Assembly (NCBI GenBank): GCA_035279665.1
Contig: DATEHI010000011.1
Location: forward strand, 1,157 to 65,156
Reading direction: 5' to 3'
From: Candidatus Dormiibacterota bacterium
GTDB lineage: Bacteria; Chloroflexota; Dormibacteria; CF-121
Length of the DNA: 64,000 nt
The notes under the pieces are model-generated. The model had not been told where the DNA came from, did not search any database, and saw only the letters and a program-made list of their open reading frames with translations. Of the stretch, positions 38,483-50,922 are shown one piece after another. Both the position numbers and the translations under genes were made by a program. Within the stretch, counting starts at the first letter, position 1. Each line of letters opens with the position of its first letter.

Positions 38483-38881
38483 TCACCCCTTCAGCATCGC
38501 ATGGATCTGCCTTGCCCCTGACAGTGTGGGGCAGACCGTGTTCAAACCGAGCTCGCGGTAGACGTCCTCCCGTATCGGGTCGTAGATACGGGTAATCACG
38601 CGGGGCACCTTGAAGATCTCGCGGGCGATTTGGGCAGCCATGATGTTGCGGTTGTCGCCGTTGGTCAGCGAGGCAAACCCGTCTGCCGACTCGATTCCCG
38701 CCTGGCGGAGGACATCTTCGTCGATCCCGTTGCCAAGCACCATCTCGCCCGCGAAATCGCTGCCGAGCCGGTCGAACGCGTGCCGGTTGCTGTCGATCAC
38801 GGTGACCTGGTGGCCGGCCTTGGAGAGGGCGAGGGCCGCCATGGCGCCCACCCGGCCGCAGCCAACGATGATGAGCTTCAT
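38483..38881 (-). CDS. TrkA-N (RCK N-terminal) domain protein
   Basis: The protein has a GCGRVG Rossmann motif and is 132 aa, in tandem with the previous gene. Confidence 0.8.
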   Translation of the reverse strand: MKLIIVGCGRVGAMAALALSKAGHQVTVIDSNRHAFDRLGSDFAGEMVLGNGIDEDVLRQAGIESADGFASLTNGDNRNIMAAQIAREIFKVPRVITRIYDPIREDVYRELGLNTVCPTLSGARQIHAMLKG

Positions 38882-38903
38882 GAAGGAAGACCCATTCTAG
38901 GTC

Positions 38904-39614
38904 CTAGTGGCCGAGCGCCAGCCGAGCAGCCTCTACCGCCGGCAGCCCGGCGCGCAGGATCTTGGCCTGGGTGGTCCCGACGTCGTAGGGCACCCGCTCA
39001 AAGAGGACGGCGGGCCTGCTGAGGTCAACGACCGCGAAGGCTGCGTCCGGGTTGCCATCGCGCGGCTGCCCGACGCTGCCAGGGTTGACGAGCGCCGAGG
39101 GCGGTAGCTCGATCCAGTCTGCCCCCTCGGGAACCTGCTCGCCGCTTTCCGTGAAGATCCGCGGCAGGTGGGTGTGCCCGAAGAAGCAATACCGTTCCCC
39201 GAGGCGGACGAGGATCTCCAGCGCCTGCAGCTCGTCGAGGATGTATTCCCAGATGTAGGGTTTGCGGGGGCTGCCGTGGACGACCCGATGGCGCCCGATC
39301 CGACCGTACAAGGGCAGTTCGCCCAAGAAGTCGAGGCTGTCGGTGGTCAGGACGTCGCGCGTCCAACGGGCGGCGGCGGCCGCGTGCGGGTTGAACTGCT
39401 CCAGCAAGCTGGGATCCAGCATGGCCTGGTCGTGATTGCCACGAACGGCACGGGCCTCCACCGACTGCAGGCGCTGGATGACCTCGTTTGGCTCCGGGCC
39501 GTAGCCGACGATGTCACCCAACACGATGATCCGATCGACGTCGGGCAGCGCCCCGAGGACGGCGTCCAGGGCCTCGAGATTGCTATGGATATCGGACAGC
39601 AGGGCCAGCTTCAC
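38904..39614 (-). CDS. metallophosphoesterase (calcineurin-like phosphoesterase superfamily)
   Basis: The protein has LSDIHSN, GDIVGYGPEP, GNHD and GHTH motifs. Confidence 0.8.
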   Translation of the reverse strand: MKLALLSDIHSNLEALDAVLGALPDVDRIIVLGDIVGYGPEPNEVIQRLQSVEARAVRGNHDQAMLDPSLLEQFNPHAAAAARWTRDVLTTDSLDFLGELPLYGRIGRHRVVHGSPRKPYIWEYILDELQALEILVRLGERYCFFGHTHLPRIFTESGEQVPEGADWIELPPSALVNPGSVGQPRDGNPDAAFAVVDLSRPAVLFERVPYDVGTTQAKILRAGLPAVEAARLALGH

Positions 39615-39626
39615 GACGGCGGTCGC

Positions 39627-40700
39627 TTAAGCGTAGATGCGTTCGTGAGCGTAGATGAAGAGAATGCGCAGAGTGGCGGCGACCGGCACCGCAACGAAGA
39701 GCCCGAGGATCCCTCCCAGGTAACCCCCCACCACGAACGCGATGATAATCAGCATCGGGCTCAGGTGAACGGCGTCGCCGAACACCTTCGGGGAAATGAA
39801 GTTGTAGACGACGTTGGAGATGACGAAGTAGAGGACCAGTACGACGACGACCTTGCCCGAGGAATGCGTGACGAACGCGGCGACGGCCACCGCGGGGAGG
39901 GCGCCGAGAAATGGCCCTATGAACGGGATGAAGGCCGTCACGCCGGCGACGATCCCGAGCGCCAGTGAATAGGGAATGCCAACGATCCAGAGGGCAATCC
40001 CGGTCACGACGCCGATCAGGGCGCAGATGATCAACTGGCCCCGCATGTAGGCGCCAAGCATGCGGTAGATGTCGGCGGCGACCTCATGAGCGTCGGTGCG
40101 ATAACCCTGGGGCACGAGGTCTCGGAAGAACCGCCGGATGGCGTGGGCGTCCTTCACCAGGAAGAACGCCACGAGCAGCACCAGGACCGTCTGGAAGATC
40201 CAGTTGAGCAGCATGAAGATGTTTTCCACGACCGAGGAGAAATGGCCGGCAAGTAACGCCGGCAGGTTGCGGACGGCATCGTTGTACGACTGCCGCAGGT
40301 CAATGGGGACGCCCAGGATGGAAACGACGTGGTCCTTGGCGGCGAGGTCTTGGAAGTAGCTGGCGATCGCCGGGCCCTGCGCGACGAGCGAGGTGAACTC
40401 CTGGCTGACAATGGGGACAAGGAAAAAAACGGCGCCCGCCAGGACGGCGGCGATGATGCCATAGAGCGCAACGACGGCCACGAGCCGGGGCACGCGCCGG
40501 CGCTCGGCCGCGTTTACCACCGGGTTGAGCAGCATCGCGAGGATTCCGGCGAGGACAAAGGGTCCCAGGATGCCGCGGATGGCGAAGGCAAGGATCAGGG
40601 TTAGGGCGCCCAGGACACCCAGGAAGATCAGGGCGCGGAAGTCTCGGCTCCGCCACAGCTCATCAACCCGGCGTCGCTGGATCATCGCGGCATTATCCAC
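39627..40700 (-). CDS. AI-2E family transporter (PerM/UPF0118)
   Basis: 357 aa with 8 TM helices in the AI-2E layout. Confidence 0.8.
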   Translation of the reverse strand: MDNAAMIQRRRVDELWRSRDFRALIFLGVLGALTLILAFAIRGILGPFVLAGILAMLLNPVVNAAERRRVPRLVAVVALYGIIAAVLAGAVFFLVPIVSQEFTSLVAQGPAIASYFQDLAAKDHVVSILGVPIDLRQSYNDAVRNLPALLAGHFSSVVENIFMLLNWIFQTVLVLLVAFFLVKDAHAIRRFFRDLVPQGYRTDAHEVAADIYRMLGAYMRGQLIICALIGVVTGIALWIVGIPYSLALGIVAGVTAFIPFIGPFLGALPAVAVAAFVTHSSGKVVVVLVLYFVISNVVYNFISPKVFGDAVHLSPMLIIIAFVVGGYLGGILGLFVAVPVAATLRILFIYAHERIYA

Positions 40701-40751
40701 TCTTCAAACGAGGAATTCGAGCCCCGGCATGCGCCAATCGAGGCGCGTGGG

Positions 40752-41339
40752 CTACTGAGACGGGTTCGAGCCATACACCGGCTGGAGCTCAGCTGCGCGC
40801 TGGCTGCAGCGGATGATGAGCCAGGCGACACCGGCCGCCATCAGGAGGTCGCCAATACTGACTAACGACGAGTGGCCGCCGATGCTGGGGATGGTCAGGA
40901 TGTCGCCCATGAACCAAAGGCCCTGCGGGTGGTCGAGGGCGATGTGCAGGGGGTCGAGGCCGCCTTTGAGAAGGGCCAGGATGGGTGAGCTCGGGTCGGC
41001 GTCGCGGGGCAATAGGACCGGCATGCGGCCGCCGAAGGCAACGATCACGATCAGATTGAGTGTCAAGCCGACCCCGAAAAGCAGTGCGCCGGGGATCCGC
41101 CGGTTGAACCAGACAACCCCCAGGAGCAGGAGGGCTCCGATTATGTTCAGCGGCCTGGCAACGGTGACAGCCATCTCTGTGTGAGCGGTCCCGAGCAGCG
41201 CGACGACGACCTTGACCACAAACGCCGCCAGGAGCAACTCGATATGCCGGATGCGGACCTGGCTGAGCCGCCGCACGTCTCCGCCAATCAGGACGGCAAT
41301 GGCCAGCGCGGCAGCAATGACCGCGAAGAACAGGAACAC
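40752..41339 (-). CDS. hypothetical polytopic membrane protein
   Basis: 195 aa with 5-6 TM helices. It lies immediately downstream of the HD-GYP fusion gene. Confidence 0.5.
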   Translation of the reverse strand: MFLFFAVIAAALAIAVLIGGDVRRLSQVRIRHIELLLAAFVVKVVVALLGTAHTEMAVTVARPLNIIGALLLLGVVWFNRRIPGALLFGVGLTLNLIVIVAFGGRMPVLLPRDADPSSPILALLKGGLDPLHIALDHPQGLWFMGDILTIPSIGGHSSLVSIGDLLMAAGVAWLIIRCSQRAAELQPVYGSNPSQ

Positions 41340-41342
41340 TTC

Positions 41343-43898
41343 CTACCCGGAGGCGGCCGCCTTTAGCGGTTCAGAAACTGGCACCTTGCGCAGAGACGCG
41401 TTTCTCAGATCAGGGAAGGCGAAGCCGACCACTGCCGCACACACGAGAAGGAATCCTGCCGCAACAAACACCAGCGGCGCTCCGAGTCGATCGGTAAGTG
41501 GGCCCGACAGCCCCATCCCCGCAAGTAGACCCAGTTGGACTAAAAGGAAACGGATGGACATCACTCGGCCCCGCACCCGATCAGGAGCCTCGGCTTGGGT
41601 AACGGAAATCAATGAGACGTAGTAAATCGTGTTTGCCACTCCGCTGAGAAACAAGAAGACGGCAGCCGTCGGAACGCTTCGGGAAAATCCAGTAAGGGCA
41701 GCGGCGAGCCCGGTACCGCCAACGCCGGCAAGGATCAGGACTCCAGCAGGCCATCGGTTCATGACTCCCGGTGCGGTAAGGGCGCCGACGATGGCGCCGG
41801 CCCCAATGGCGGCTTCGAGCGCTCCATATCCGAAGGCGCCACCGCCCAGAGGCCCAAACGCCATCACCACGAGGATTGGGACTGTCAGACTACCGAAGAT
41901 TACGGCGAAAAACGTCAGTCCCATCGTCGATCGCAACGTTCGGTTGGTCAAGACGAAACGACTCCCTTCCTTGATGTCGTCCAACAACCGGACCGTACGG
42001 GCCTGAATACGACTCCGGTCCGCAACCCCGAGCAGAGTGAGTGCTGACACGATGAAGGTGGCTGCGTCCACGATGAAGAGTGGCTGCCACGAGGCGACGG
42101 CTGCGATAAGCCCGGCCAGGGAATACCCCAACAACTCCATCGTCTTCTCGGACGACGAAATGAGGCTGTTGGCCTTGACGAGGAACTCGGCCGGCACCAG
42201 GTTCGGCAGAATTGCTTGCTTGGCCGGGTTAAATAGTGTGCTCGCTGTCGCGACCAGGAAGACCACGATAAACACCGCTGGTAACCAGGTCAGGGCCAAG
42301 AAGGGGATCGTAATGGTCAGGACGGCCCGCGTGATATCGGTCAGGATCATGACCCGCTGCCGATTGAAGCGATCGACAAGTGCGCCCGCGATCAACCCAA
42401 AGAATACGGTCGGTGCGGCTTTCGCGATAAGGCCGAGTGCCACCATGGAAGGCGAGTGGGTAACCAGGTAGAGCATGATGGCCAGGCCAGTCGTATTCAT
42501 CATGTCGCCGAAGTAGGAAATGGCCTGCCCGATCCACAGTAGACGAAAGGGTCTGATAGCGAGGACTTCTCGGAAGCGAATTGATCGTGCGGCTGGAGCG
42601 ACAGGCCCCTCCAGGTGGACACCCCACCGCTCAGCGACGATCCTTTCGAGCGCGGCGATTACTTTCGGGTCGTACCACGTCCCTGCGAGGCTGTGGAGTT
42701 CGCGTATCGCTTCCTCGGGGGTCTTGACCGTTGGTCGAAAGACCCGCGCCTGGGTGATGGTATCGAAGGCGTCGCACGCGTTAACGATTCGAGAGCCAAT
42801 CGGTATCTCTTCGGCCCTGATACCGTCGGGATACCCTGCCCCGTCCCACCTCTCGTGGTGATGACGCAGTATCTCCGAGACTTCTCTTTGCTCGGGGTGC
42901 TCCGCGAGAATCTGGGCGCCCTCAACGGGATGGGTCTTGATGATCTCGTACTCTTCGGGGGTCAACTTTCCAGGCTTGAGCAGGATCGAATCGGGAATGG
43001 CGATCTTCCCGAGGTCATGGAGAATGCCACCGACCCTGATCGTGTTGGATGCCTCGTCAGACATACCCAGCAGGCGTGCCACCGATTCGCTAAGTTCGCC
43101 GACACGTTGGGAGTGACCAAATGTCTGGCCGTCGCGCTTGTCAACGACGCGGCTCTGCATGATGTACGAGTCGCGCAACCAAGTATCAAGTTGGCGCTGT
43201 TTCTGGATACTGGCTCGGTAGATGAGAAGCGGTGCGTATAGCAAGAAGACCACGAGCCGGTCGGTAAACCGCGGGCCCGCGACCAGGTGAGCCACGAGCA
43301 CACCCGTTAGCGGAAGCGCCAGGTAGGTAAGTGCATTGCCGGAGAGCGCCCCCTTGATTGTTGCGATCAATCCAGTTCCCCGCACCAGGCTGATCGAGGT
43401 GGCCATCAATGTCGTGTTCAGGGCGATTGTCATCACGGCTGCCAGGAACAAGAGAAATGGCGTTGTAGTTGGGCTGTGTTGGAGGCCATCCGAAACCAGG
43501 AGACTAGGGATGCCATACGAGAGAATCCACATCCCGCGGTTGAAGGCAAATCGGTTCCACGGAATCTGCTTTCCCGGAACCCGGAGGTCGATGGTGCCGA
43601 GGGCAGCCGCGGTCATCACCGCCCAGGGAGGCAGTGGCAAGGCGACGGCGCCGAAGAGCGGCGCCAGGGTGACCGACAGCGAGCCTCCGCCGCGGGTCTC
43701 AATCGGGGCGAGACCGGACAGAAACGTCAGCACGAGCAGGACCAACAGCTCCTGATAGGTGCTATCGGTAAGCAGGTCGGCGCCGCTCCGCCACGGTGCG
43801 GCTTGCACCAAGGTCCAGATCCAGAGCGCCAAGCCACCGACCGCTATGGCCCAGATGTAACGAGGGGCGAGCCAGCTACGGCGCATCCAAGAGCCCAC
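41343..43898 (-). CDS. three-part fusion: N-terminal 7-TM sensor region, HD-GYP phosphodiesterase domain and C-terminal complete MFS transporter domain
   Basis: 851-aa uninterrupted ORF. Residues 1-230 are polytopic. Residues 250-420 carry HD (GGILHDLGK) and HHERWDGAGYP motifs. From residue ~445 there is a canonical MFS start, RPFRLLWIGQAISYFGDMMNTTGLAIML, with 12 TM helices. No in-frame ATG/GTG/TTG occurs at the domain junction. Confidence 0.75.
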   Translation of the reverse strand: MGSWMRRSWLAPRYIWAIAVGGLALWIWTLVQAAPWRSGADLLTDSTYQELLVLLVLTFLSGLAPIETRGGGSLSVTLAPLFGAVALPLPPWAVMTAAALGTIDLRVPGKQIPWNRFAFNRGMWILSYGIPSLLVSDGLQHSPTTTPFLLFLAAVMTIALNTTLMATSISLVRGTGLIATIKGALSGNALTYLALPLTGVLVAHLVAGPRFTDRLVVFLLYAPLLIYRASIQKQRQLDTWLRDSYIMQSRVVDKRDGQTFGHSQRVGELSESVARLLGMSDEASNTIRVGGILHDLGKIAIPDSILLKPGKLTPEEYEIIKTHPVEGAQILAEHPEQREVSEILRHHHERWDGAGYPDGIRAEEIPIGSRIVNACDAFDTITQARVFRPTVKTPEEAIRELHSLAGTWYDPKVIAALERIVAERWGVHLEGPVAPAARSIRFREVLAIRPFRLLWIGQAISYFGDMMNTTGLAIMLYLVTHSPSMVALGLIAKAAPTVFFGLIAGALVDRFNRQRVMILTDITRAVLTITIPFLALTWLPAVFIVVFLVATASTLFNPAKQAILPNLVPAEFLVKANSLISSSEKTMELLGYSLAGLIAAVASWQPLFIVDAATFIVSALTLLGVADRSRIQARTVRLLDDIKEGSRFVLTNRTLRSTMGLTFFAVIFGSLTVPILVVMAFGPLGGGAFGYGALEAAIGAGAIVGALTAPGVMNRWPAGVLILAGVGGTGLAAALTGFSRSVPTAAVFLFLSGVANTIYYVSLISVTQAEAPDRVRGRVMSIRFLLVQLGLLAGMGLSGPLTDRLGAPLVFVAAGFLLVCAAVVGFAFPDLRNASLRKVPVSEPLKAAASG

Positions 43899-43940
43899 AG
43901 TATCCTATGGGATAACTTCTGTACCCACCGTTTCTGGCCG

Positions 43941-43972
43941 CAAAAAAAGCCCGGGCTCTTGCCCGGGCTTCT
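43941..43972 (-). terminator. rho-independent terminator (AGCCCGGGC-AAGA-GCCCGGGCTTTTTTTG on the minus strand)
   Basis: A perfect 9-bp GC stem is followed by a T7 run on the minus strand, downstream of the RR/HK/small-peptide transcription unit. Confidence 0.6.
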
Positions 43973-43985
43973 TTATATCAGCGAG

Positions 43986-44057
43986 CTACCAACCCCAGCC
44001 GGCGCCGCCGGCCACGATGGCACCAAGCAGGCCGACGACAACGACAATCAACTTCTT
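43986..44057 (-). CDS. 23-aa hydrophobic micro-protein (MKKLIVVVVGLLGAIVAGGAGWGW)
   Basis: An RBS-like GGGGGTGG lies 6 nt upstream of the ATG. It is a single TM helix between the two-component operon and a strong terminator. Confidence 0.3.
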   Translation of the reverse strand, partial: KKLIVVVVGLLGAIVAGGAGWGW

Positions 44058-44202
44058 CATCGCGACCACCCCCACGTATAAGATTCCTCGAAAGCCGCGC
44101 AGAGGACTCCCTTGGTATTCACCAAGGTAGCGCCCTCGGACCGCCGCGTAAATCTGTCCACAGGTCGCCAGACCGACCTGTTGATAGCGAACTAATGTTC
44201 GG

Positions 44203-44847
44203 CTAGATGTCCAGTTGGACCGCTTGTGCTGCCGCCTCGGCGCGGGTTCGCACCTGGAGCTTGCGGTAGATGTTCCGGAGATGCGACTTGATCGTCCCCT
44301 CACCCAGGCCCAGGCGATTGGCGATCGCCTTGTTGCTCATCCCCACAACCACCATCCGGAGGATCTGGGTCTCGCGCTCGGTGAGCGGTTCCGCCAGGGG
44401 CCGGCGCGATCTCTTTAGGGTTGAGCCCAGCCGCACGATGACCCGGCGGGTCAGCTGGTCATCGAGCTGGAAGTGGCCGGCGTGGGCTTCCTGGATGCTG
44501 CGGGCCAGGCTCGCCGGGTCGACATCCTTCAACACATAGCCGGACGCCCCTGCGGCGACCATCTCGACAATGTCCTCTTCCGCCTCGGAGATCGTCAGGG
44601 CCAGCACCACCCGGTCGGGGTTCTCCTCCTTGATGGCGCGGGTGGCGGCGATTCCGCCCATTTCCGGCATGTTGAGGTCCATGAGGATCACGTCCGGCTT
44701 CAGCCGCCGGGATCGCTCGACCGCCTGCCGTCCGGTCATCGCTTCGCCCACGATGTCGATCTCGGGGAAGTCGCGCAGCATGCCCTGGACACCAGCCCGG
44801 AAAATGGGCCGATCGTCGGCGATCAGGACGCGGACCCGATCGTTCAC
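44203..44847 (-). CDS. NarL/FixJ-family response regulator (REC + LuxR HTH)
   Basis: The receiver domain shows DDRPIFR...DLNMP. The C-terminal LuxR HTH is LTERETQILRMVVVGMSNKAIANRL. Confidence 0.9.
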   Translation of the reverse strand: MNDRVRVLIADDRPIFRAGVQGMLRDFPEIDIVGEAMTGRQAVERSRRLKPDVILMDLNMPEMGGIAATRAIKEENPDRVVLALTISEAEEDIVEMVAAGASGYVLKDVDPASLARSIQEAHAGHFQLDDQLTRRVIVRLGSTLKRSRRPLAEPLTERETQILRMVVVGMSNKAIANRLGLGEGTIKSHLRNIYRKLQVRTRAEAAAQAVQLDI

Positions 44848-46496
44848 TCGGCCCGGTCCGCAGGGCCGATGAGCGTCACGACGGTGCCTTCCAACGATTG
44901 GCTCACGATTTCGAGCGTTCCCCCCATCAGCTCGGCCCGCTCGCGCATCCCCACCAGTCCGTAGGAGCCGACTTTCCGGGGGTCTTCGGCCACCCGGCGC
45001 ACGTCAAAGCCGCGGCCGTCGTCGCGGACTGTCATCACCCAGGGAGCCGATGACAGATCGAGGACGACCCAGAGGTTGCGCGCTCGCGAGTGCTTGCGGA
45101 CGTTCGAGAGGCTCTCACGGAGCACCTGGAAGATGACCTCCTTCTGCTCCGCGGCGATGGTGTTCTCCTCGCCGCGAATGTTGACGTTGGTTTCGACCAG
45201 GTTCACCCGCCCGAACTGGTCGACCAGCTTCAACAGCGAGGCCAGCAACCCCTCGGAACGGATGGTTTTAGGCCGCAGCGACTGCAGGATGTTGCGCGCA
45301 CCGCCCAGGATCTCCTCCGACATTGAGCGCAGCTGCGGCAGCAACTGGCTCGCATCGTCAGGATCGCGCTCCCGGCGTTGTTCGTAATACTTGAAGAGCG
45401 CGACTACCGCCGCCAGGTCGGAGGCGAGCCCGTCGTGGATCTCGCGGGCCAGGTTCAGCCGCTCCTGCAGGACGGCGACCTCCGCGACTTTGCTGGCCAG
45501 GCTGTGTGCCCGCAGCGCGGCCACCGCCTCTACCGCCAGGTCCTCCAGCCGGACGGCATCGCGCCGGTCCAGCCGCCATGGAGTGCGCCGCAGAAGGGCC
45601 AGCACCCCGATCGGCCGCTCGAGTGGAGGCGATAGGGCAATCGCGGCGAACCCCCGGTAGCCGGCGTCCACCCACGCGGACTCGTCCGGGGTCAGTTCCT
45701 CGTTTGCGAGGTCCTCGACGGTGAAGACCTCGTTATGCTCGAGGGCTTTCCGGAGGAGACCACTGCTGATGGATGCGACGCCCTCGGGTGCCGCCAGCGA
45801 CTCCGTCGGGACGCCGGCGCGAAGGACGAAGCGCCGCTGCTCGCCTAGCGTGTACACCTGACTGGCGTCCACCTGGAGCAGATCGAGAGCTTGCTGGGCC
45901 GCCGCCAGCAGGATGGTCTGAAGGTAGCCGGCCATCTGCTCGGGTACCAGACGCGCAGCCGGGACCTCGGCCGAGGCGGGCGCCGGTTGGGTCGGCGGCC
46001 CAGGTGCCGCGGTGTCGGCTGGTTCAGTCGCCACCTCGGGAGGTGGCGGCGCGGTGATGGCTGGGGCTGGTTCCGGCGAAGGCTCGGGAGGCGCGGGTGT
46101 GACGGCGACCGGTTCAGTGGCTGCCTCGGGAGCCGACGGTGTAACAGCGACCGGCTCCACTGGAGCCTCGGGAACAGTTGGCTCGGGGCGGATGGCAGGC
46201 TGGGTCCGCTCCATCGAGCGGGCGAAGAGCTCGAAGAAGTGGTCGAGCACCGCGCGCTCGTCCGGACTCAGCTCGCCGTTCACGCCGGCGATCATCTCGG
46301 CAGCACTAGCGCGGGGCTCGTGCCACGCCGCGCCGGACTCGGCCGTACCGCGGCGGAGCCGGCGGATCAGCTCACGAAGCCGCTCGGCAGCCGCCGCCCG
46401 CTCTTCATCGCTCGGCTCGCGGGCGCGGACATGCGCCAGCTGCTCCGCAATTTCCGGGAAGTTGACCTCGAGGTAGTGAACAAGGACGTCGTGCAT
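44844..46496 (-). CDS. sensor histidine kinase (GAF-like + HisKA_3 + HATPase_c) with a proline-rich tandem-repeat linker
   Basis: The H-box is REIHDGLASDLAAV, followed by an ATPase G-box. The N-terminus carries EPVAVTPSAPEAATEPVAVTPAPPEPSPEP repeats. It overlaps the RR start. Confidence 0.85.
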   Translation of the reverse strand: MHDVLVHYLEVNFPEIAEQLAHVRAREPSDEERAAAAERLRELIRRLRRGTAESGAAWHEPRASAAEMIAGVNGELSPDERAVLDHFFELFARSMERTQPAIRPEPTVPEAPVEPVAVTPSAPEAATEPVAVTPAPPEPSPEPAPAITAPPPPEVATEPADTAAPGPPTQPAPASAEVPAARLVPEQMAGYLQTILLAAAQQALDLLQVDASQVYTLGEQRRFVLRAGVPTESLAAPEGVASISSGLLRKALEHNEVFTVEDLANEELTPDESAWVDAGYRGFAAIALSPPLERPIGVLALLRRTPWRLDRRDAVRLEDLAVEAVAALRAHSLASKVAEVAVLQERLNLAREIHDGLASDLAAVVALFKYYEQRRERDPDDASQLLPQLRSMSEEILGGARNILQSLRPKTIRSEGLLASLLKLVDQFGRVNLVETNVNIRGEENTIAAEQKEVIFQVLRESLSNVRKHSRARNLWVVLDLSSAPWVMTVRDDGRGFDVRRVAEDPRKVGSYGLVGMRERAELMGGTLEIVSQSLEGTVVTLIGPADRAE

Positions 46497-46659
46497 TGTC
46501 TTTTGAGTAGGGACTTCAAACTATCGAAGTCGGGAAAGAAAGTTTTGTCAAGGGCAGTTCGGCGGATGTCCGTTAAGACGATAACCGTGTACAAAGATGT
46601 TACGGGAGCCAAAGCTATAATGGCTAAGTCGCGGCTTTCCCCAGGACTTGTGATCTTTA

Positions 46660-48153
46660 TTGACTGCTGAAACCGCCAGCATCCGGCTTTCCTACATCAT
46701 CAACCACGATGTGACGAAGGCCGCGATGCAGAACTTCTCGGCCCGGACGGGCATATCCCTGGCTGCCGACTCCACAGACGGCTACCAGATCCCGCCCGGG
46801 CTACCGCAGAACGATTTCTGCCTGATCATGCAGAACTTTGGACGCTGCGAAATGGTGCCCAACGCCTCGGCGCCGCTTCACGGTGATGAGCCCCAGCTGC
46901 GCTATGACGGCGCACAGATCGGGCACTTGATCGTCCCCATCTGCGACGGCCGCCACCTGCTCGGGCGGTTGGTCAGCGAGCCATTCGCCGTTACGAAGCC
47001 GGAGTTCGCGACGGTCTACGAGCTGGCGCGCGCGCTCCCGGTGCATCCGGACAATCTGATGCGCGCGGTGCAGTCAGTACCCGTCGTTTCCCAGCCGCAA
47101 ATCATGGAAGCGGCCAACCTCGTTCACACGCTGGTGCAGCACGTAGTCGCCCAGAATTACAAACACCAGGACGAGCTCACGGTGCTGCGCGCCTTCGACA
47201 GCATCATGACCAATCTCAGTTACGAAGTCCTGAGCGACATGATCCTCAACCTGGGGACCCGGCTGCTCCGCGGCCAGGCATCCCTTCTGTTCCTCGCCGG
47301 TGAGCAAGGACAGCGCGAAGAAGCCTATACGGGGCCGGAACCCAATGGCACCGGCGACCTTCGCCGGCTGCTGGTCGAAATGTCGGACTTCGTCCTGCAG
47401 TCGAAGCGGCCGCTGTCCGTCCCGGACGCCTCGCAAAGCCCCTGGACGCAACACCTGCTGGGCCGCCATGACGTACAGGGCTCGATCACGATCACGCCGC
47501 TTCTCCAGCAGGATCGCCTTCGCGGCACGCTCGGCATTTATGCGACCGACGCCAGCCGCGACCCGGAGTCGGACCTCCACCTACTTTCGATGCTCGCGGC
47601 GCAGGCCGTCAACAGCCTGGTCATGCTCGAGCGGTTGGTCGCCAGTGAGGAGCAGGCGCTCACGGACAGCCTCACCGGCCTCTACAACTACCGCTTCTTC
47701 CAGGAGAGCCTGCAGCGCGAGCTGAGCCGGGCCTCGCGCAGCAAGGCCCCCCTATCCCTGATCGTGCTCGACCTGGACAATTTCAAGGTCATCAACGACA
47801 ACTACGGCCATCCCGTGGGCGACCGCGTGCTTCGTCACCTCGCCGATCTGATCCAGCGCCACAGCCGCAAGGCGAACGTCGTCGTCCGCTACGGCGGCGA
47901 CGAATTCTGCATCATCGTCCCGGAGGGCGACCTCGATACGGCGCGGGGGGTCGCCGAGCGCGTGCTCACCGAAATCCGCAACAGCCCTTACGGCGACGAG
48001 GCCCATGGCGTGCCACCCGTGACCCTCACGGTCAGCGCCGGCGTCACCGCCTACCGCCCCGAGGAGGACAACGCTTTTTCCTTCTTCAAGCGGGCCGACG
48101 AGAACCTGCTCACCGCCAAGCGCACCGGTAAGGACCGCGTCGTCGCCGAATAA
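46660..48153 (+). CDS. diguanylate cyclase (N-terminal sensor + GAF-like + GGDEF)
   Basis: The C-terminal domain has the GGDEF motifs DNFKVINDNYGHPVGD and RYGGDEF. Confidence 0.85.
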   Translation: MTAETASIRLSYIINHDVTKAAMQNFSARTGISLAADSTDGYQIPPGLPQNDFCLIMQNFGRCEMVPNASAPLHGDEPQLRYDGAQIGHLIVPICDGRHLLGRLVSEPFAVTKPEFATVYELARALPVHPDNLMRAVQSVPVVSQPQIMEAANLVHTLVQHVVAQNYKHQDELTVLRAFDSIMTNLSYEVLSDMILNLGTRLLRGQASLLFLAGEQGQREEAYTGPEPNGTGDLRRLLVEMSDFVLQSKRPLSVPDASQSPWTQHLLGRHDVQGSITITPLLQQDRLRGTLGIYATDASRDPESDLHLLSMLAAQAVNSLVMLERLVASEEQALTDSLTGLYNYRFFQESLQRELSRASRSKAPLSLIVLDLDNFKVINDNYGHPVGDRVLRHLADLIQRHSRKANVVVRYGGDEFCIIVPEGDLDTARGVAERVLTEIRNSPYGDEAHGVPPVTLTVSAGVTAYRPEEDNAFSFFKRADENLLTAKRTGKDRVVAE

Positions 48154-48154
48154 G

Positions 48155-48430
48155 TCAGCGGCGCCGGTAAGGCCGCCCCATCGCTCGGCGAAGCAGCCAC
48201 GGGATGGTGGCCGCCACGAGCGGCTGACCCAGGAACGAGGACAGCGTTTCTAGCTTGGGGAACAACTCTGAGGCCGTGTGCTCCAGGGCAAAGCCGTGCT
48301 CGTTGAGCCGGGTCGTCAATCGTTCTAACTCGGTCGCTTCCTCCAGGGCGTAGGCGGAAAGCTCGGCGGCGCGCCGTGATGTCCGGCGATAGGCGCGCCA
48401 CACGGAAACGATCGCGTAGATGAGCAACAC
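48155..48430 (-). CDS. small hypothetical protein (N-terminal TM helix + coiled coil)
   Basis: 91-aa ORF with a GTG start 40 nt after the gyrA stop. The assignment is uncertain. Confidence 0.3.
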   Translation of the reverse strand: MLLIYAIVSVWRAYRRTSRRAAELSAYALEEATELERLTTRLNEHGFALEHTASELFPKLETLSSFLGQPLVAATIPWLLRRAMGRPYRRR

Positions 48431-48471
48431 CAGGCCGATGGCGGCCAGGGCGATGGCGATCGCAGCGAGCG

Positions 48472-50922
48472 TTACTCTTCGGCCTCCTCCGTGCCGCCCA
48501 CGCCGGCAATGGTGGCGACGGTATCGCCTTCATCGAGCCGCATGATGATGACGCCCTGGGTCTGTCGTCCGGCCACGCGGATGTTCTCAATCGGCGTGCG
48601 GATCACCTGGCCGCCTTCGGAGATGACGATCAGCTGTTCCTCCTCGGGGTTGACGACCACGCGCATCCCGACCAGGGGACCGGTGCGATCCGTGACGGCC
48701 ATCGTATAGACGCCCTGCCCGCCGCGGGAATGCGCCGGGTACTCGGCCAGCGGCGTGAGCTTGCCGTAACCCCTGGCCGAGACGACCAGCAGGTGGGCGT
48801 CTTTGCGTACGATGTCGAAGCCGGCTACCAGCGCGTCTTTGCGCAAAGTGATGCCGCGCACCCCGGTGGTGTCGCGGCCCATCGGGCGAACCTGCTTCTC
48901 GCTGAAGCGCACGGCTTTGCCGTCGGTGGTGGCGATGATGAGCTCATCCCCGCCCGAGCTGAGCTTGACCCAGTTCAACTCATCACCTTCGGTCAGGTTG
49001 ATGGCGATCAGGCCATTGCGCCGCACCTGGCTGTAGAGCCGCGCCGGCGTCTTCTTGATGGTGCCTTGCTTGGTCACCATCACGAGGTACCGGTCTTCCG
49101 CCCAGTCGGTGATGCCGATCACGGCGGTGATCTTGTCCTTGGGGTCGATGTCGATGAGGTTTGCCGCCGGCAATCCCTTGGCCTGCCGGTTGACATCGGG
49201 GATCTCATGAACTCGAAGGCGGAAGACCGACCCGTGGTTCGTGAAGAAGAGCATGTCGGAGTGCGTGGAGGCAATCGCCAGGTGCTCCACGAAGTCGGAC
49301 TCGACGCGGGCCGCCCCGAGGATCCCTTTGCCGCCGCGACGTTGCGGCCGGTAGGTCGTTGCCGGTACGCGCTTGACGTAGCCGCGGTGGGTAAGCGTGA
49401 CGACCACGTCTTCCTTGGGAACCAGGTCTTCTTCGTTGAGCTCAACCGAGCCCTGGAAGTCGAGCGTGGTCCGGCGAGGATCGCCGTACTTCTTCTTGAG
49501 CTCGGCCAGATCGTCCTTGATCAGCATCATGATTTTCGCTTCGTGCTGAAGGAGGTCTTCGAGGTAGGCGATTCGCTTGATGACCTCCTCGTACTCTTCC
49601 ATGACTTTGTTGCGCTCGAGGCGGGTCAGGCGGCCGAGCCGCATGTCGATGATGGCCTTCGATTGCCGCTCGGAGAGCTTGAAGCGCTCCTGCAGACGTT
49701 CCTGCGCGGTCTTCTCGTCCTGCGACTCGCGGATCGTCTTGATCACAGCATCGAGGTTATCGAGGGCGATCTTGAGGCCTTCGAGGAGGTGGGCCCGGTC
49801 TCGCGCACGCTCGAGCTCGTAGCGGGTCCGGCGTGTGATCACGTCACGGCGATGGTCGACGTGATGCTGGAGCAGGGCCTTGAGGTTGAGCACGAGCGGC
49901 CGGCCGTCTACCAGCGCCAGCGAAATCACCCCGAAGGTGGTCTGCAGCGCGGTGTGCTTATAGAGGTTGTTGAGGACGGTGAGCGCGCGAGCATCCTTCT
50001 TCAGCTCGATGACGATCCGCATGCCCTGACGGTCGGATTCGTCGTTGAGATCCGCGATACCTTCCAGCTTCCGCTCGCCGACGAGCTCCGCGATGCGCGC
50101 GACCAGGGTGGCCTTGTTGACCATGTAGGGGATCTCGGTGATGATGATCCGCTCGCGACCGTTCTTGGCCTCTTCGAAGGTGTGGCGCGCCCGCACGATC
50201 AGGCGACCGTGGCCGGTGCCGTAGGCGGCAGCGATCCCTTCACGACCGATGATGATCCCGCCGGTCGGAAAGTCCGGTCCCTTGACCAGCTTCATCAGGT
50301 CCTCGGTGGTCGCATCTGGATGCTCGATGAGATAGATCTCCGCGTCGCAGACCTCACCGAGGTTGTGCGGCGGAATGTTAGTCGTCATGCCGACCGCGAT
50401 GCCCGATGAGCCGTTGAGCATCAGGTTCGGCAAGCGGGCGGGCAGCACGAGCGGCTCCTGCCGTGTCGCGGAATAGTTGTCGCCGAAGTCGACGGTGTCC
50501 TTCTCGAGGTCGACCAGCAACTCAGCGGCGATCGGGGCGAGCCGGGCTTCGGTGTAGCGATAGGCGGCTGCCGAGTCGCCATCGATCGAGCCGAAGTTCC
50601 CCTGGCCGTCGACCAGCGGGTAGCGCAGCGAGAAGTCCTGCGCCATTCGCACCAGGCTGTCGTAGACGGACATGTCGCCATGGGGGTGGTAGTGCTTGAG
50701 GACTTCGCCGATGATGGCAGCGCACTTCTGATAGCGGGCGCCGGGGGTCATGCCTTGCTCCTGCATCGCGTAAAGGATCCGGCGATGCACGGGCTTGAGC
50801 CCGTCGCGCGCGTCCGGCAGCGCCCGGCTGACGATGACGCTCATCGCGTAGTCCATGTAGCTCGAGCGCATCTCGTTCTCGAGCTGCAGCGGCAAGACCG
50901 TACCGATATTTAGTGGTTCCAT
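48472..50922 (-). CDS. gyrA: DNA gyrase subunit A
   Basis: The active-site region is AAMRYTE-like (ARYTEARL), and the QRDR region contains [17 protein letters not shown]. The C-terminus has a beta-pinwheel. Confidence 0.95.

Follow-up and report, generated by a model that had tools for sequence, protein, structure and literature searches.

HD-GYP domains represent the less understood class of phosphodiesterases for cyclic di-GMP (c-di-GMP). Those catalogued in the HD-GYP census of Galperin and Chou (bioRxiv 10.1101/2021.11.05.467447) are joined to sensory or signalling domains, namely REC, GAF, PAS, GGDEF(-EAL), DUF3391, DUF3369, periplasmic sensors and MASE9-12, and none of the terms MFS, transporter, permease and facilitator appears anywhere in the census. 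Here we describe a gene in a 64,000-nucleotide stretch of DNA from a Candidatus Dormiibacterota bacterium (contig DATEHI010000011.1; the whole stretch is referred to below as the window) that encodes, in one open reading frame (ORF) at 41343..43898 on the minus strand, a MASE9-type membrane sensor, an HD-GYP enzyme and a complete transporter of the major facilitator superfamily (MFS) with 12 transmembrane (TM) helices.

The nearest described architectures are the MASE9-HD-GYP proteins, such as TM1467 of T. maritima and HdgA of S. venezuelae, which likewise begin with a MASE9 module containing a short-helix hairpin and continue into a full HD-GYP domain. These proteins stop at the HD-GYP domain or run into GAF-GGDEF, and never into a transporter, whereas the window protein does; its MASE9 module is also divergent and falls under the Pfam cut-off by itself. 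The window protein thus belongs to the MASE9-HD-GYP lineage, extended by a transporter. An MFS protein also serves as sensor for a signalling enzyme in the UhpC/UhpB system, where an MFS-type glucose-6-phosphate sensor signals to a histidine kinase, but there the partners are separately encoded and interact non-covalently, and the sensor comes from another MFS family (organophosphate:Pi antiporters). In Sd-Amt1 (Amt-HAMP-GGDEF) and Ks-Amt5, a transporter-fold module is covalently joined to a signalling enzyme, and in Sd-Amt1 this fold is the input to a c-di-GMP enzyme (PMC11152129). Those proteins have an N-terminal Amt fold followed by HAMP or a rigid helix and a cyclase or kinase, whereas the window protein has a C-terminal MFS fold, a flexible linker of ~20 residues, a phosphodiesterase and preserved transport motifs; it lacks the N-terminal transporter and rigid helical link by which transporter-derived receptors are recognized.

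The first-pass annotation of this DNA had taken the HD-GYP-MFS architecture to be undescribed, and this agrees both with the census and with the literature searched (full text), in which we found no description of such a fusion and nothing relevant on c-di-GMP in Dormibacterota or on MFS-GGDEF fusions. Public pipelines nevertheless already label members automatically; some carry the JGI name 'HD-GYP domain-containing protein (c-di-GMP phosphodiesterase class II)/MFS family permease'. What is new is therefore the recognition and interpretation of the architecture, as the sequences are already in databases.

Architecture of the fusion protein

The fusion gene and its parts, all on the minus strand, are as follows:

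41343..43898, minus, whole fusion ORF, 851 residues from GTG, uninterrupted, MASE9 - HD-GYP - MFS
43179..43886, minus, N-terminal membrane sensor, a divergent MASE9 (residues 5-240; hhalign and AlphaFold2 (AF2))
43071..43253, minus, final TM helix extending into the HD-GYP domain, a single helix of ~60 residues (AF2 helix 212-272 in 847-residue numbering)
42660..43157, minus, HD-GYP phosphodiesterase domain (residues 248-413; Pfam and ligand alignment)
42561..42623, minus, linker from the HD-GYP domain to TM1 of the MFS module, ~20 residues, in frame, Arg-rich, of constant length and low model confidence
41412..42560, minus, 12-TM MFS module of MFS_3/DHA3 type (residues 447-829), motif A G-x3-D-R-x2-R

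The presence of these three modules in one protein (membrane sensor, HD-GYP enzyme and complete 12-TM MFS transporter) is confirmed, and the fusion is genuine. No internal stop interrupts the 851 residues, and the single frame, in which the first-pass annotation had already recognised a fusion, matches Pfam models for both the HD-GYP and the MFS module; the translation contains all the motifs quoted in that annotation, ILHDLGK, RHHHERWDGAGYPDG and RPFRLLWIGQAISYFGD. In orthologs and in the calls of independent gene finders the protein begins at MRRSWLA, and the true start is likely the corresponding ATG at 43886, giving 847 rather than 851 residues.

The HD-GYP domain, proposed in the first-pass annotation, retains its full set of metal and substrate ligands. 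Pfam HD_5 covers residues 248-413 (model positions 3-170 of 170, E 7e-43) and HD covers residues 259-380 (E 3e-23). In 851-residue numbering the catalytic set comprises H262, H294-D295, K298, H323, H346-H348, G355-Y356-P357, D376 and D379 (H258, H290-D291, K294, H319, H342-344, G351-Y352-P353 and D372 in 847-residue numbering), and the H, HD, K, H, HHH, GYP and D..D positions are invariant in 60 of 60 aligned sequences. The signature motifs read HHERWDGAGYP and HDLGK, in which the Lys after HD is the c-di-GMP-binding residue. Over ~170 residues the domain aligns with PmGH (4MCW; E 5e-30), V-cGAP3 (5Z7C; E 4e-37) and PA4781 (4R8Z), with all His/Asp ligands and HHExxDGxGYP in common and its metal ligands matched to those of PmGH. 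Those proteins differ from the fusion in being soluble, with GAF, REC or tandem domains, and in that the third-metal Glu of PmGH (E185) is replaced in the fusion family by Q (clade 1, to which the window protein belongs) or Y (clade 2). Since this Glu defines the trinuclear HD-GYP subgroup and not the family, the metal site of the fusion is probably of the binuclear type. The domain is apparently a catalytically competent phosphodiesterase and, because the neighbouring GGDEF cyclase is canonical, most likely acts on c-di-GMP from that syntenic PocR-GAF-GGDEF enzyme. A degenerate, receptor-only HD-GYP domain is ruled out, as every ligand is invariant.

The N-terminal module, placed directly before the HD-GYP domain, was described in the first-pass annotation as a 7-TM sensor, but hhalign and the AF2 model identify it instead as a divergent MASE9 with six TM helices and a re-entrant hairpin of short helices. 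Alone, it scores 16.6 bits against Pfam MASE9 (PF20972), below the gathering score of 24.3 (E 0.008). Stand-alone relatives of ~410-460 residues align to residues ~17-430 of the window protein, and the N-terminal domains of five of these, each matching Pfam MASE9 at E<=0.01 and three of them above the Pfam cut-off (P0203, P0214 and P0234 at 29.8-35.6 bits; the other two weaker), were used as the hhalign target; the window module matched this set with 99.3% probability (E 2e-20, 215 columns). AF2 models (predicted local distance difference test score, pLDDT, ~80; predicted TM-score, pTM, 0.80 for the isolated domain) have six long TM helices, with short helices at 74-82 and 87-97 lying between full-length ones. 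This pair fits the hairpin of Galperin and Chou, who described two too-short segments in MASE9 as an intramembrane hairpin (bioRxiv 10.1101/2021.11.05.467447). A D-x-R-x-P-G motif in a cytoplasmic loop of the module is invariant. The long helix that leads from TM6 into the HD-GYP domain is predicted to be a signalling helix; an unbroken helix from sensor into enzyme is the usual geometry of signal transmission.

When the MASE9 model (mdb8580db1018) was searched with Foldseek, its best PDB matches were S-components of energy-coupling factor (ECF) transporters, namely FolT, BioY, ThiT and CbiM (probability 0.9-1.0, target-normalised TM-score 0.5-0.6, best E 0.02), and two MASE9 relatives have weak Pfam matches to ECF S-component families. 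MASE9 may share the ligand-binding fold of these proteins, which we regard as a lead rather than a finding.

The C-terminal module matches Pfam MFS_3 at residues 447-829 (E 2e-36, 126 bits against a cut-off of 27) and MFS_1 at residues 454-790 (E 7e-35, 121 bits against 33.4, model positions 1-342 of 347), so that both six-helix halves are covered above the cut-offs; together with the 12-TM fold of the model, this upholds the complete 12-TM MFS transporter of the first-pass annotation. The AF2 model is mostly at pLDDT 75-94 over the MFS region, and in Foldseek it matched MdfA, VMAT2, SotB and NorA with target-normalised TM-scores of 0.75-0.85. Among MFS_3/DHA3 exporters (EntS, Mef(A), Tet(V), Tap), the MFS_3 and TIGR00900 profiles match the whole 12-TM module; NCBIfam TIGR00900 (DHA3 H+ antiporter) aligns at residues 451-806 with E 1e-60 and 206 bits, under its cut-off of 320, and the weaker matches to EntS (92 against 324 bits), Tet(V), Mef and Tap are all far under their equivalog cut-offs. 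The NCBIfam scan thus did not assign the module, at equivalog level, to EntS, Mef, Tet(V) or Tap, the transporters whose substrate is known. Motif A reads GALVDRFNRQR in the TM2-TM3 loop, with G501, D505 and R509 invariant, and most residues invariant in the family are common to stand-alone MFS_3 relatives, including the membrane-embedded D461, D607, E691 and R779. The module is complete and apparently transport-competent. A degenerate MFS module that serves only as an anchor is unlikely, given that motif A and the family-wide residues are kept, that its ratio of nonsynonymous to synonymous substitution rates (dN/dS) is 0.03-0.07 and that MASE9 already anchors the protein. Fusions of an MFS transporter to an enzyme already exist in the LplT-Aas type, whose NCBIfam models (bifunctional acyl-ACP-phospholipid acyltransferase) match the MFS part; in the window protein, by comparison, the enzyme is a second-messenger phosphodiesterase and lies N-terminal to the MFS module.

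The overall topology would be self-consistent, with the Arg-rich linker and the HD-GYP domain both cytoplasmic; MFS proteins normally begin on the cytoplasmic side.

Conservation, neighbourhood and origin of the fusion

The fusion is ancient and conserved across Dormibacterota. The matches listed include about 270 protein clusters with the fusion. Their metagenomes are independent of one another, and the clusters sort into at least three deep clades, all at full length, with mutual identities of only ~30%. In a search of about 5.8 billion protein clusters, at least 120 are 63-98% identical to the window protein, and all those listed have HD_5, HD, MFS_3 and MFS_1, mostly at lengths of 818-851 residues; a distant locus used as query (L008, a 32%-identical ortholog) added at least 120 more, of which all those listed are fused, and a third clade, consisting of P0154 and about 33 clusters labelled only 'bacterium' at NCBI, is fused as well. 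An exhaustive HMMER search of representatives at 50% identity recovered about 17 fused proteins that are mutually 25-50% identical. In a scan of one genome per GTDB species, nine fusion loci were found in metagenome-assembled genomes (MAGs), five at 59-80% identity to the window protein and four at 32-34% over residues 51-810. Eight of the nine span both modules; the remaining one (L005) starts at a contig end and contains only the junction and the MFS part. The MAGs are labelled Candidatus Dormiibacterota, Ca. Dormibacter or 'Chloroflexi bacterium CF_xx', and one named member, 'Candidatus Dormibacteria bacterium', lies on a 2.47-Mb contig. Among the matches listed, the sole phylum-level name outside Dormibacterota/'Chloroflexi' is 'Acidobacteria bacterium', attached to a clade-2 cluster on a 4.7-kb contig.

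In an alignment of 60 sequences from two clades, the junction is in frame in all 60 and the length of the linker is the same within 2 residues; in clade 2 the linker sequence is conserved too. Purifying selection acts strongly on each of the three modules: by the Nei-Gojobori method, comparison of the window with its 98% and 90% relatives gave a dN/dS of 0.07-0.09 for the N-terminal MASE9 module, 0.03 for HD-GYP and 0.03-0.07 for the MFS module. For the linker, the same relatives gave 0.13-0.36, with values climbing towards 1 in more distant pairs. The listed relatives are all single polypeptides and not the two separate genes that the first-pass annotation had named as the alternative, and no fused lineage among those sampled has reverted to two genes. 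That a frameshift, a missed stop or a chimeric assembly joined two adjacent genes is vanishingly improbable. The only prior concern was the uncultured, high-GC source organism, and the artefact is refuted by the recurrence of this fusion across JGI, ENA, NCBI and Logan assemblies, where hundreds of clusters have it, and at nine loci of reference MAGs, by the in-frame junction and by purifying selection on both sides of it.

The genes that surround the fusion in the window are as follows:

38904..39614, minus, Metallophos_2 phosphoesterase gene, synteny kept in clade 1 and clade 2, neighbour of the fusion in L081
39627..40700, minus, gene for an AI-2E family transporter, synteny kept in clade 1 and clade 2
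40752..41339, minus, gene for a DUF5317 (PF17248) membrane protein, 3 nt past the fusion stop
44203..44847, minus, REC-LuxR (GerE) response regulator
44844..46496, minus, GAF - HisKA_3 - HATPase histidine kinase
46660..48153, plus, PocR-GAF-GGDEF diguanylate cyclase, GGDEF motif intact, divergent, syntenic in clade 1
48155..48430, minus, 91-residue ORF between gyrA and the GGDEF gene, without a Pfam family

The GGDEF gene and the LuxR-family two-component system that the first-pass annotation had noted nearby are thus both present. In clade 1 the order is gyrA, the 91-residue ORF, the divergent PocR-GAF-GGDEF gene, the GAF-HisKA_3 kinase, the REC-LuxR regulator and the fusion, followed by DUF5317, the AI-2E permease and the Metallophos_2 phosphoesterase. 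At clade-2 loci DUF5317 is missing, but regulator, permease and phosphoesterase are all still present, and in a locus of a further clade (L081; GyrA 59% identical) gyrB-plsX-gyrA, the kinase/regulator pair and the phosphoesterase lie around the fusion. This shared synteny across clades indicates that the fusion is orthologous and old within the lineage.

Iterated searches with hidden Markov models placed DUF5317 directly downstream of MASE9-type HD-GYP genes in several phyla, including immediately downstream of stand-alone MASE9-HD-GYP genes in Bacillota (L010, L011, L013, L039), Actinomycetota (L035, L076) and Thermus (L046). This pairing suggests that DUF5317 and the MASE9-type HD-GYP protein form a cross-phylum two-gene module, and that the ancestral unit was probably [MASE9-HD-GYP][DUF5317]. 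In Dormibacterota, the MFS module is positioned between MASE9-HD-GYP and DUF5317, and we infer from these arrangements that the fusion arose when a stand-alone MASE9-HD-GYP gene, of a kind that is widespread, took up an MFS gene in frame. The literature searched held nothing relevant on DUF5317.

Other features of the neighbourhood were also noted. The AI-2E permease and Metallophos_2 phosphoesterase genes are syntenic with the fusion between clades that are only ~32% identical; that the phosphoesterase acts on a nucleotide product such as pGpG would be speculation. The PocR-GAF-GGDEF cyclase has the canonical IND guanine-contact motif and a degenerate RxxD inhibitory site (RKAN), so that product feedback inhibition of this enzyme is probably absent. 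The 91-residue gene is also called in L084 and L085. In two Acidobacteriota MAGs (L036 4231..4869 and L077 6033..7169), an MFS_3-like gene, 28-31% identical to the MFS module of the window, is located upstream of, and divergent from, an HD-GYP gene with a GGDEF gene behind it; this may be a weak, non-fused echo of the HD-GYP/MFS association, or chance.

Possible coupling of the phosphodiesterase and the transporter

A transporter placed behind the catalytic domain, and retained there for as long as the phylum has existed, suggests that c-di-GMP turnover is linked directly and physically to the export or sensing of a solute, and such coupling is plausible. The reading that we prefer, to which we assign a probability of roughly 0.4, is that, in this three-module signalling enzyme of the inner membrane, MASE9 would control the HD-GYP domain through the long helix, while the tethered MFS module would provide a second, transceptor-like input that tunes c-di-GMP hydrolysis. 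A signal received by MASE9 would pass down this helix to the phosphodiesterase, and the conformation of the MFS module at the cytoplasmic face, beneath the tethered HD-GYP domain, would reflect substrate load or proton-motive force. The state of the MFS module would in turn tune the hydrolysis of c-di-GMP made by the neighbouring cyclase, such that the local c-di-GMP level would report both the MASE9 signal and export activity. An MFS input is suggested by the precedent of Sd-Amt1 (PMC11152129), by the finding that partner domains of c-di-GMP enzymes are overwhelmingly inputs (Galperin and Chou census) and by a metagenomic protein of 1177 residues (P0471; L086 6001..9534) that has the same modules in the order DUF5317 - MFS - MASE9-like - GGDEF - HD-GYP, with its membrane parts at the N-terminus, the usual position of inputs.

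Several observations weigh against this reading. The MFS module comes after the enzyme, at the C-terminus, which inverts the order in which input and output usually stand and also that of Sd-Amt1, and the transport residues of the module are kept; known sensor-only transporters such as Ks-Amt5 and Sd-Amt1 tend to lose transport. The linker is modelled at pLDDT <50 and in clade 1 it is poorly conserved (dN/dS 0.13-0.98), so that in this clade a passive tether fits better than a rigid transmission element. The best PDB match of the HD-GYP domain is a cGAMP (cyclic GMP-AMP) phosphodiesterase; c-di-GMP, as against 3'3'-cGAMP, is the presumed substrate. At a pTM of 0.50, the AF2 model of the fusion does not allow domain-domain contacts to be read, and contacts taken from it were discarded as unusable. 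P0471 comes from a single contig, and its relatives at 50-66% identity (L087-L096) consist of MASE9-GGDEF-HD-GYP alone and have neither DUF5317 nor MFS in the 3 kb upstream; P0471 may be chimeric or may have been fused independently, as a rare case, and its value as independent Rosetta-stone evidence is weakened by relatives without the DUF5317-MFS part.

Alternatively, the HD-GYP domain could be the sensor and the MFS module the output. In that case, c-di-GMP binding or turnover in the HD-GYP domain would alter the docking of this domain on the cytoplasmic face of the MFS module and thereby switch export on or off, presumably of a siderophore-, signal- or drug-like substrate, as in the EntS/Mef relatives. 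The N-to-C order, which places the MFS module last, the fully conserved transport machinery and the nearest families, which export (EntS, Mef, Tet(V), TIGR00900), would all suit an enzyme-gated exporter, and the Galperin and Chou census describes some HD-GYP proteins as working through protein-protein interactions. We rate this trigger-enzyme arrangement as less likely, though a live rival, because the flexible linker of clade 1 is under weak constraint, no precedent was found for the gating in cis of a secondary transporter by a c-di-GMP enzyme, and the invariant catalytic residues indicate that the domain is not a degenerate receptor. Such a linker, near-neutral in clade 1 (dN/dS up to ~1) and of low pLDDT, would also fit a fusion that has no allostery at all, in which two members of the same pathway are merely expressed 1:1 and co-localised, providing a local c-di-GMP sink by the exporter, and each module does resemble a self-sufficient stand-alone family. 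A passive fusion of this kind, likewise a live rival, seems slightly less likely still, since the linker keeps a constant length between clades that share only 30% identity, and in clade 2 its sequence as well, no sampled fused lineage has split back into two genes, and anchoring is no reason for the fusion in a protein that MASE9 already anchors.

The MFS module might also export the cyclic dinucleotide itself, or pGpG/GMP, such that one protein would both degrade and expel the messenger. The module is of exporter type, and the MFS proteins MdrM/MdrT have been implicated in c-di-AMP secretion in Listeria (PMC3933815), but this dual clearance is very improbable: it is drawn purely by analogy, no sequence feature points to nucleotide substrates, and the export of a messenger that the adjoining domain destroys looks redundant.

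Somewhat more tentatively than our preferred reading of a transceptor-like input, the fusion can be pictured as a cis-coupled machine in which a proton-coupled MFS exporter would be gated directly by the HD-GYP domain, according to its c-di-GMP occupancy or turnover, or hydrolysis would be gated by the transport cycle, with the involvement of DUF5317 and of an S-component-like pocket in MASE9. Were this to hold, it would be the first cyclic-dinucleotide enzyme allosterically wired to a secondary transporter in a single polypeptide, and a phylum-wide signature of Dormibacterota physiology.

The architecture is clean, phylum-wide and unexpected, but it is built of known domains, and the mechanism of coupling is speculative. 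It would add an MFS case to the few hybrids of transporter and signalling protein (Amt-GGDEF, Amt-kinase, SLC5-kinase); it also ties DUF5317, a family without a function, to MASE9-type HD-GYP genes and gives a hint of an ECF S-component-like fold in MASE9. Dormibacterota are uncultured, abundant soil bacteria, and the conserved signalling island by gyrA is among the few testable clues to how their lifestyle is regulated.

The intergenic region between regulator and fusion

Two features were located between the response regulator and the fusion gene:

43986..44060, minus, small ORF for a hydrophobic peptide of 24 residues, MKKLIVVVVGLLGAIVAGGAGWGW, with peptide-level conservation in six loci
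43939..43970, minus, intrinsic terminator, a GC-rich hairpin followed by a T7 run, conserved, between the small ORF and the fusion

The terminator lies ~15 nt after the small ORF and ~50 nt before the fusion ATG, and the changes in its stem are compensatory across loci. An Rfam scan of 38500-48500 gave only sub-threshold matches, located on the terminator hairpin, and an upstream riboswitch or other known RNA element was rejected on this basis. A scan for Sigma-70 promoters found 1 site against 1.4 expected. After the terminator lies a conserved element, TTATCCC-ATAGGATAC, which might serve as a -10 box and would then leave a very short leader, and a TAGGAT-like element is conserved ~15 nt ahead of the fusion ATG.

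The small ORF is also called by JGI, at 29 residues, and the peptide MKKLIVVVVGLLGAIVAGGAGWGW might act as a leader peptide or as a regulator of the small membrane-protein type. Upstream of it, at ~44095..44112 on the minus strand, there is a conserved palindrome, CCTTGGTGAATACCAAGG, which may bind a regulator or form a hairpin in RNA.

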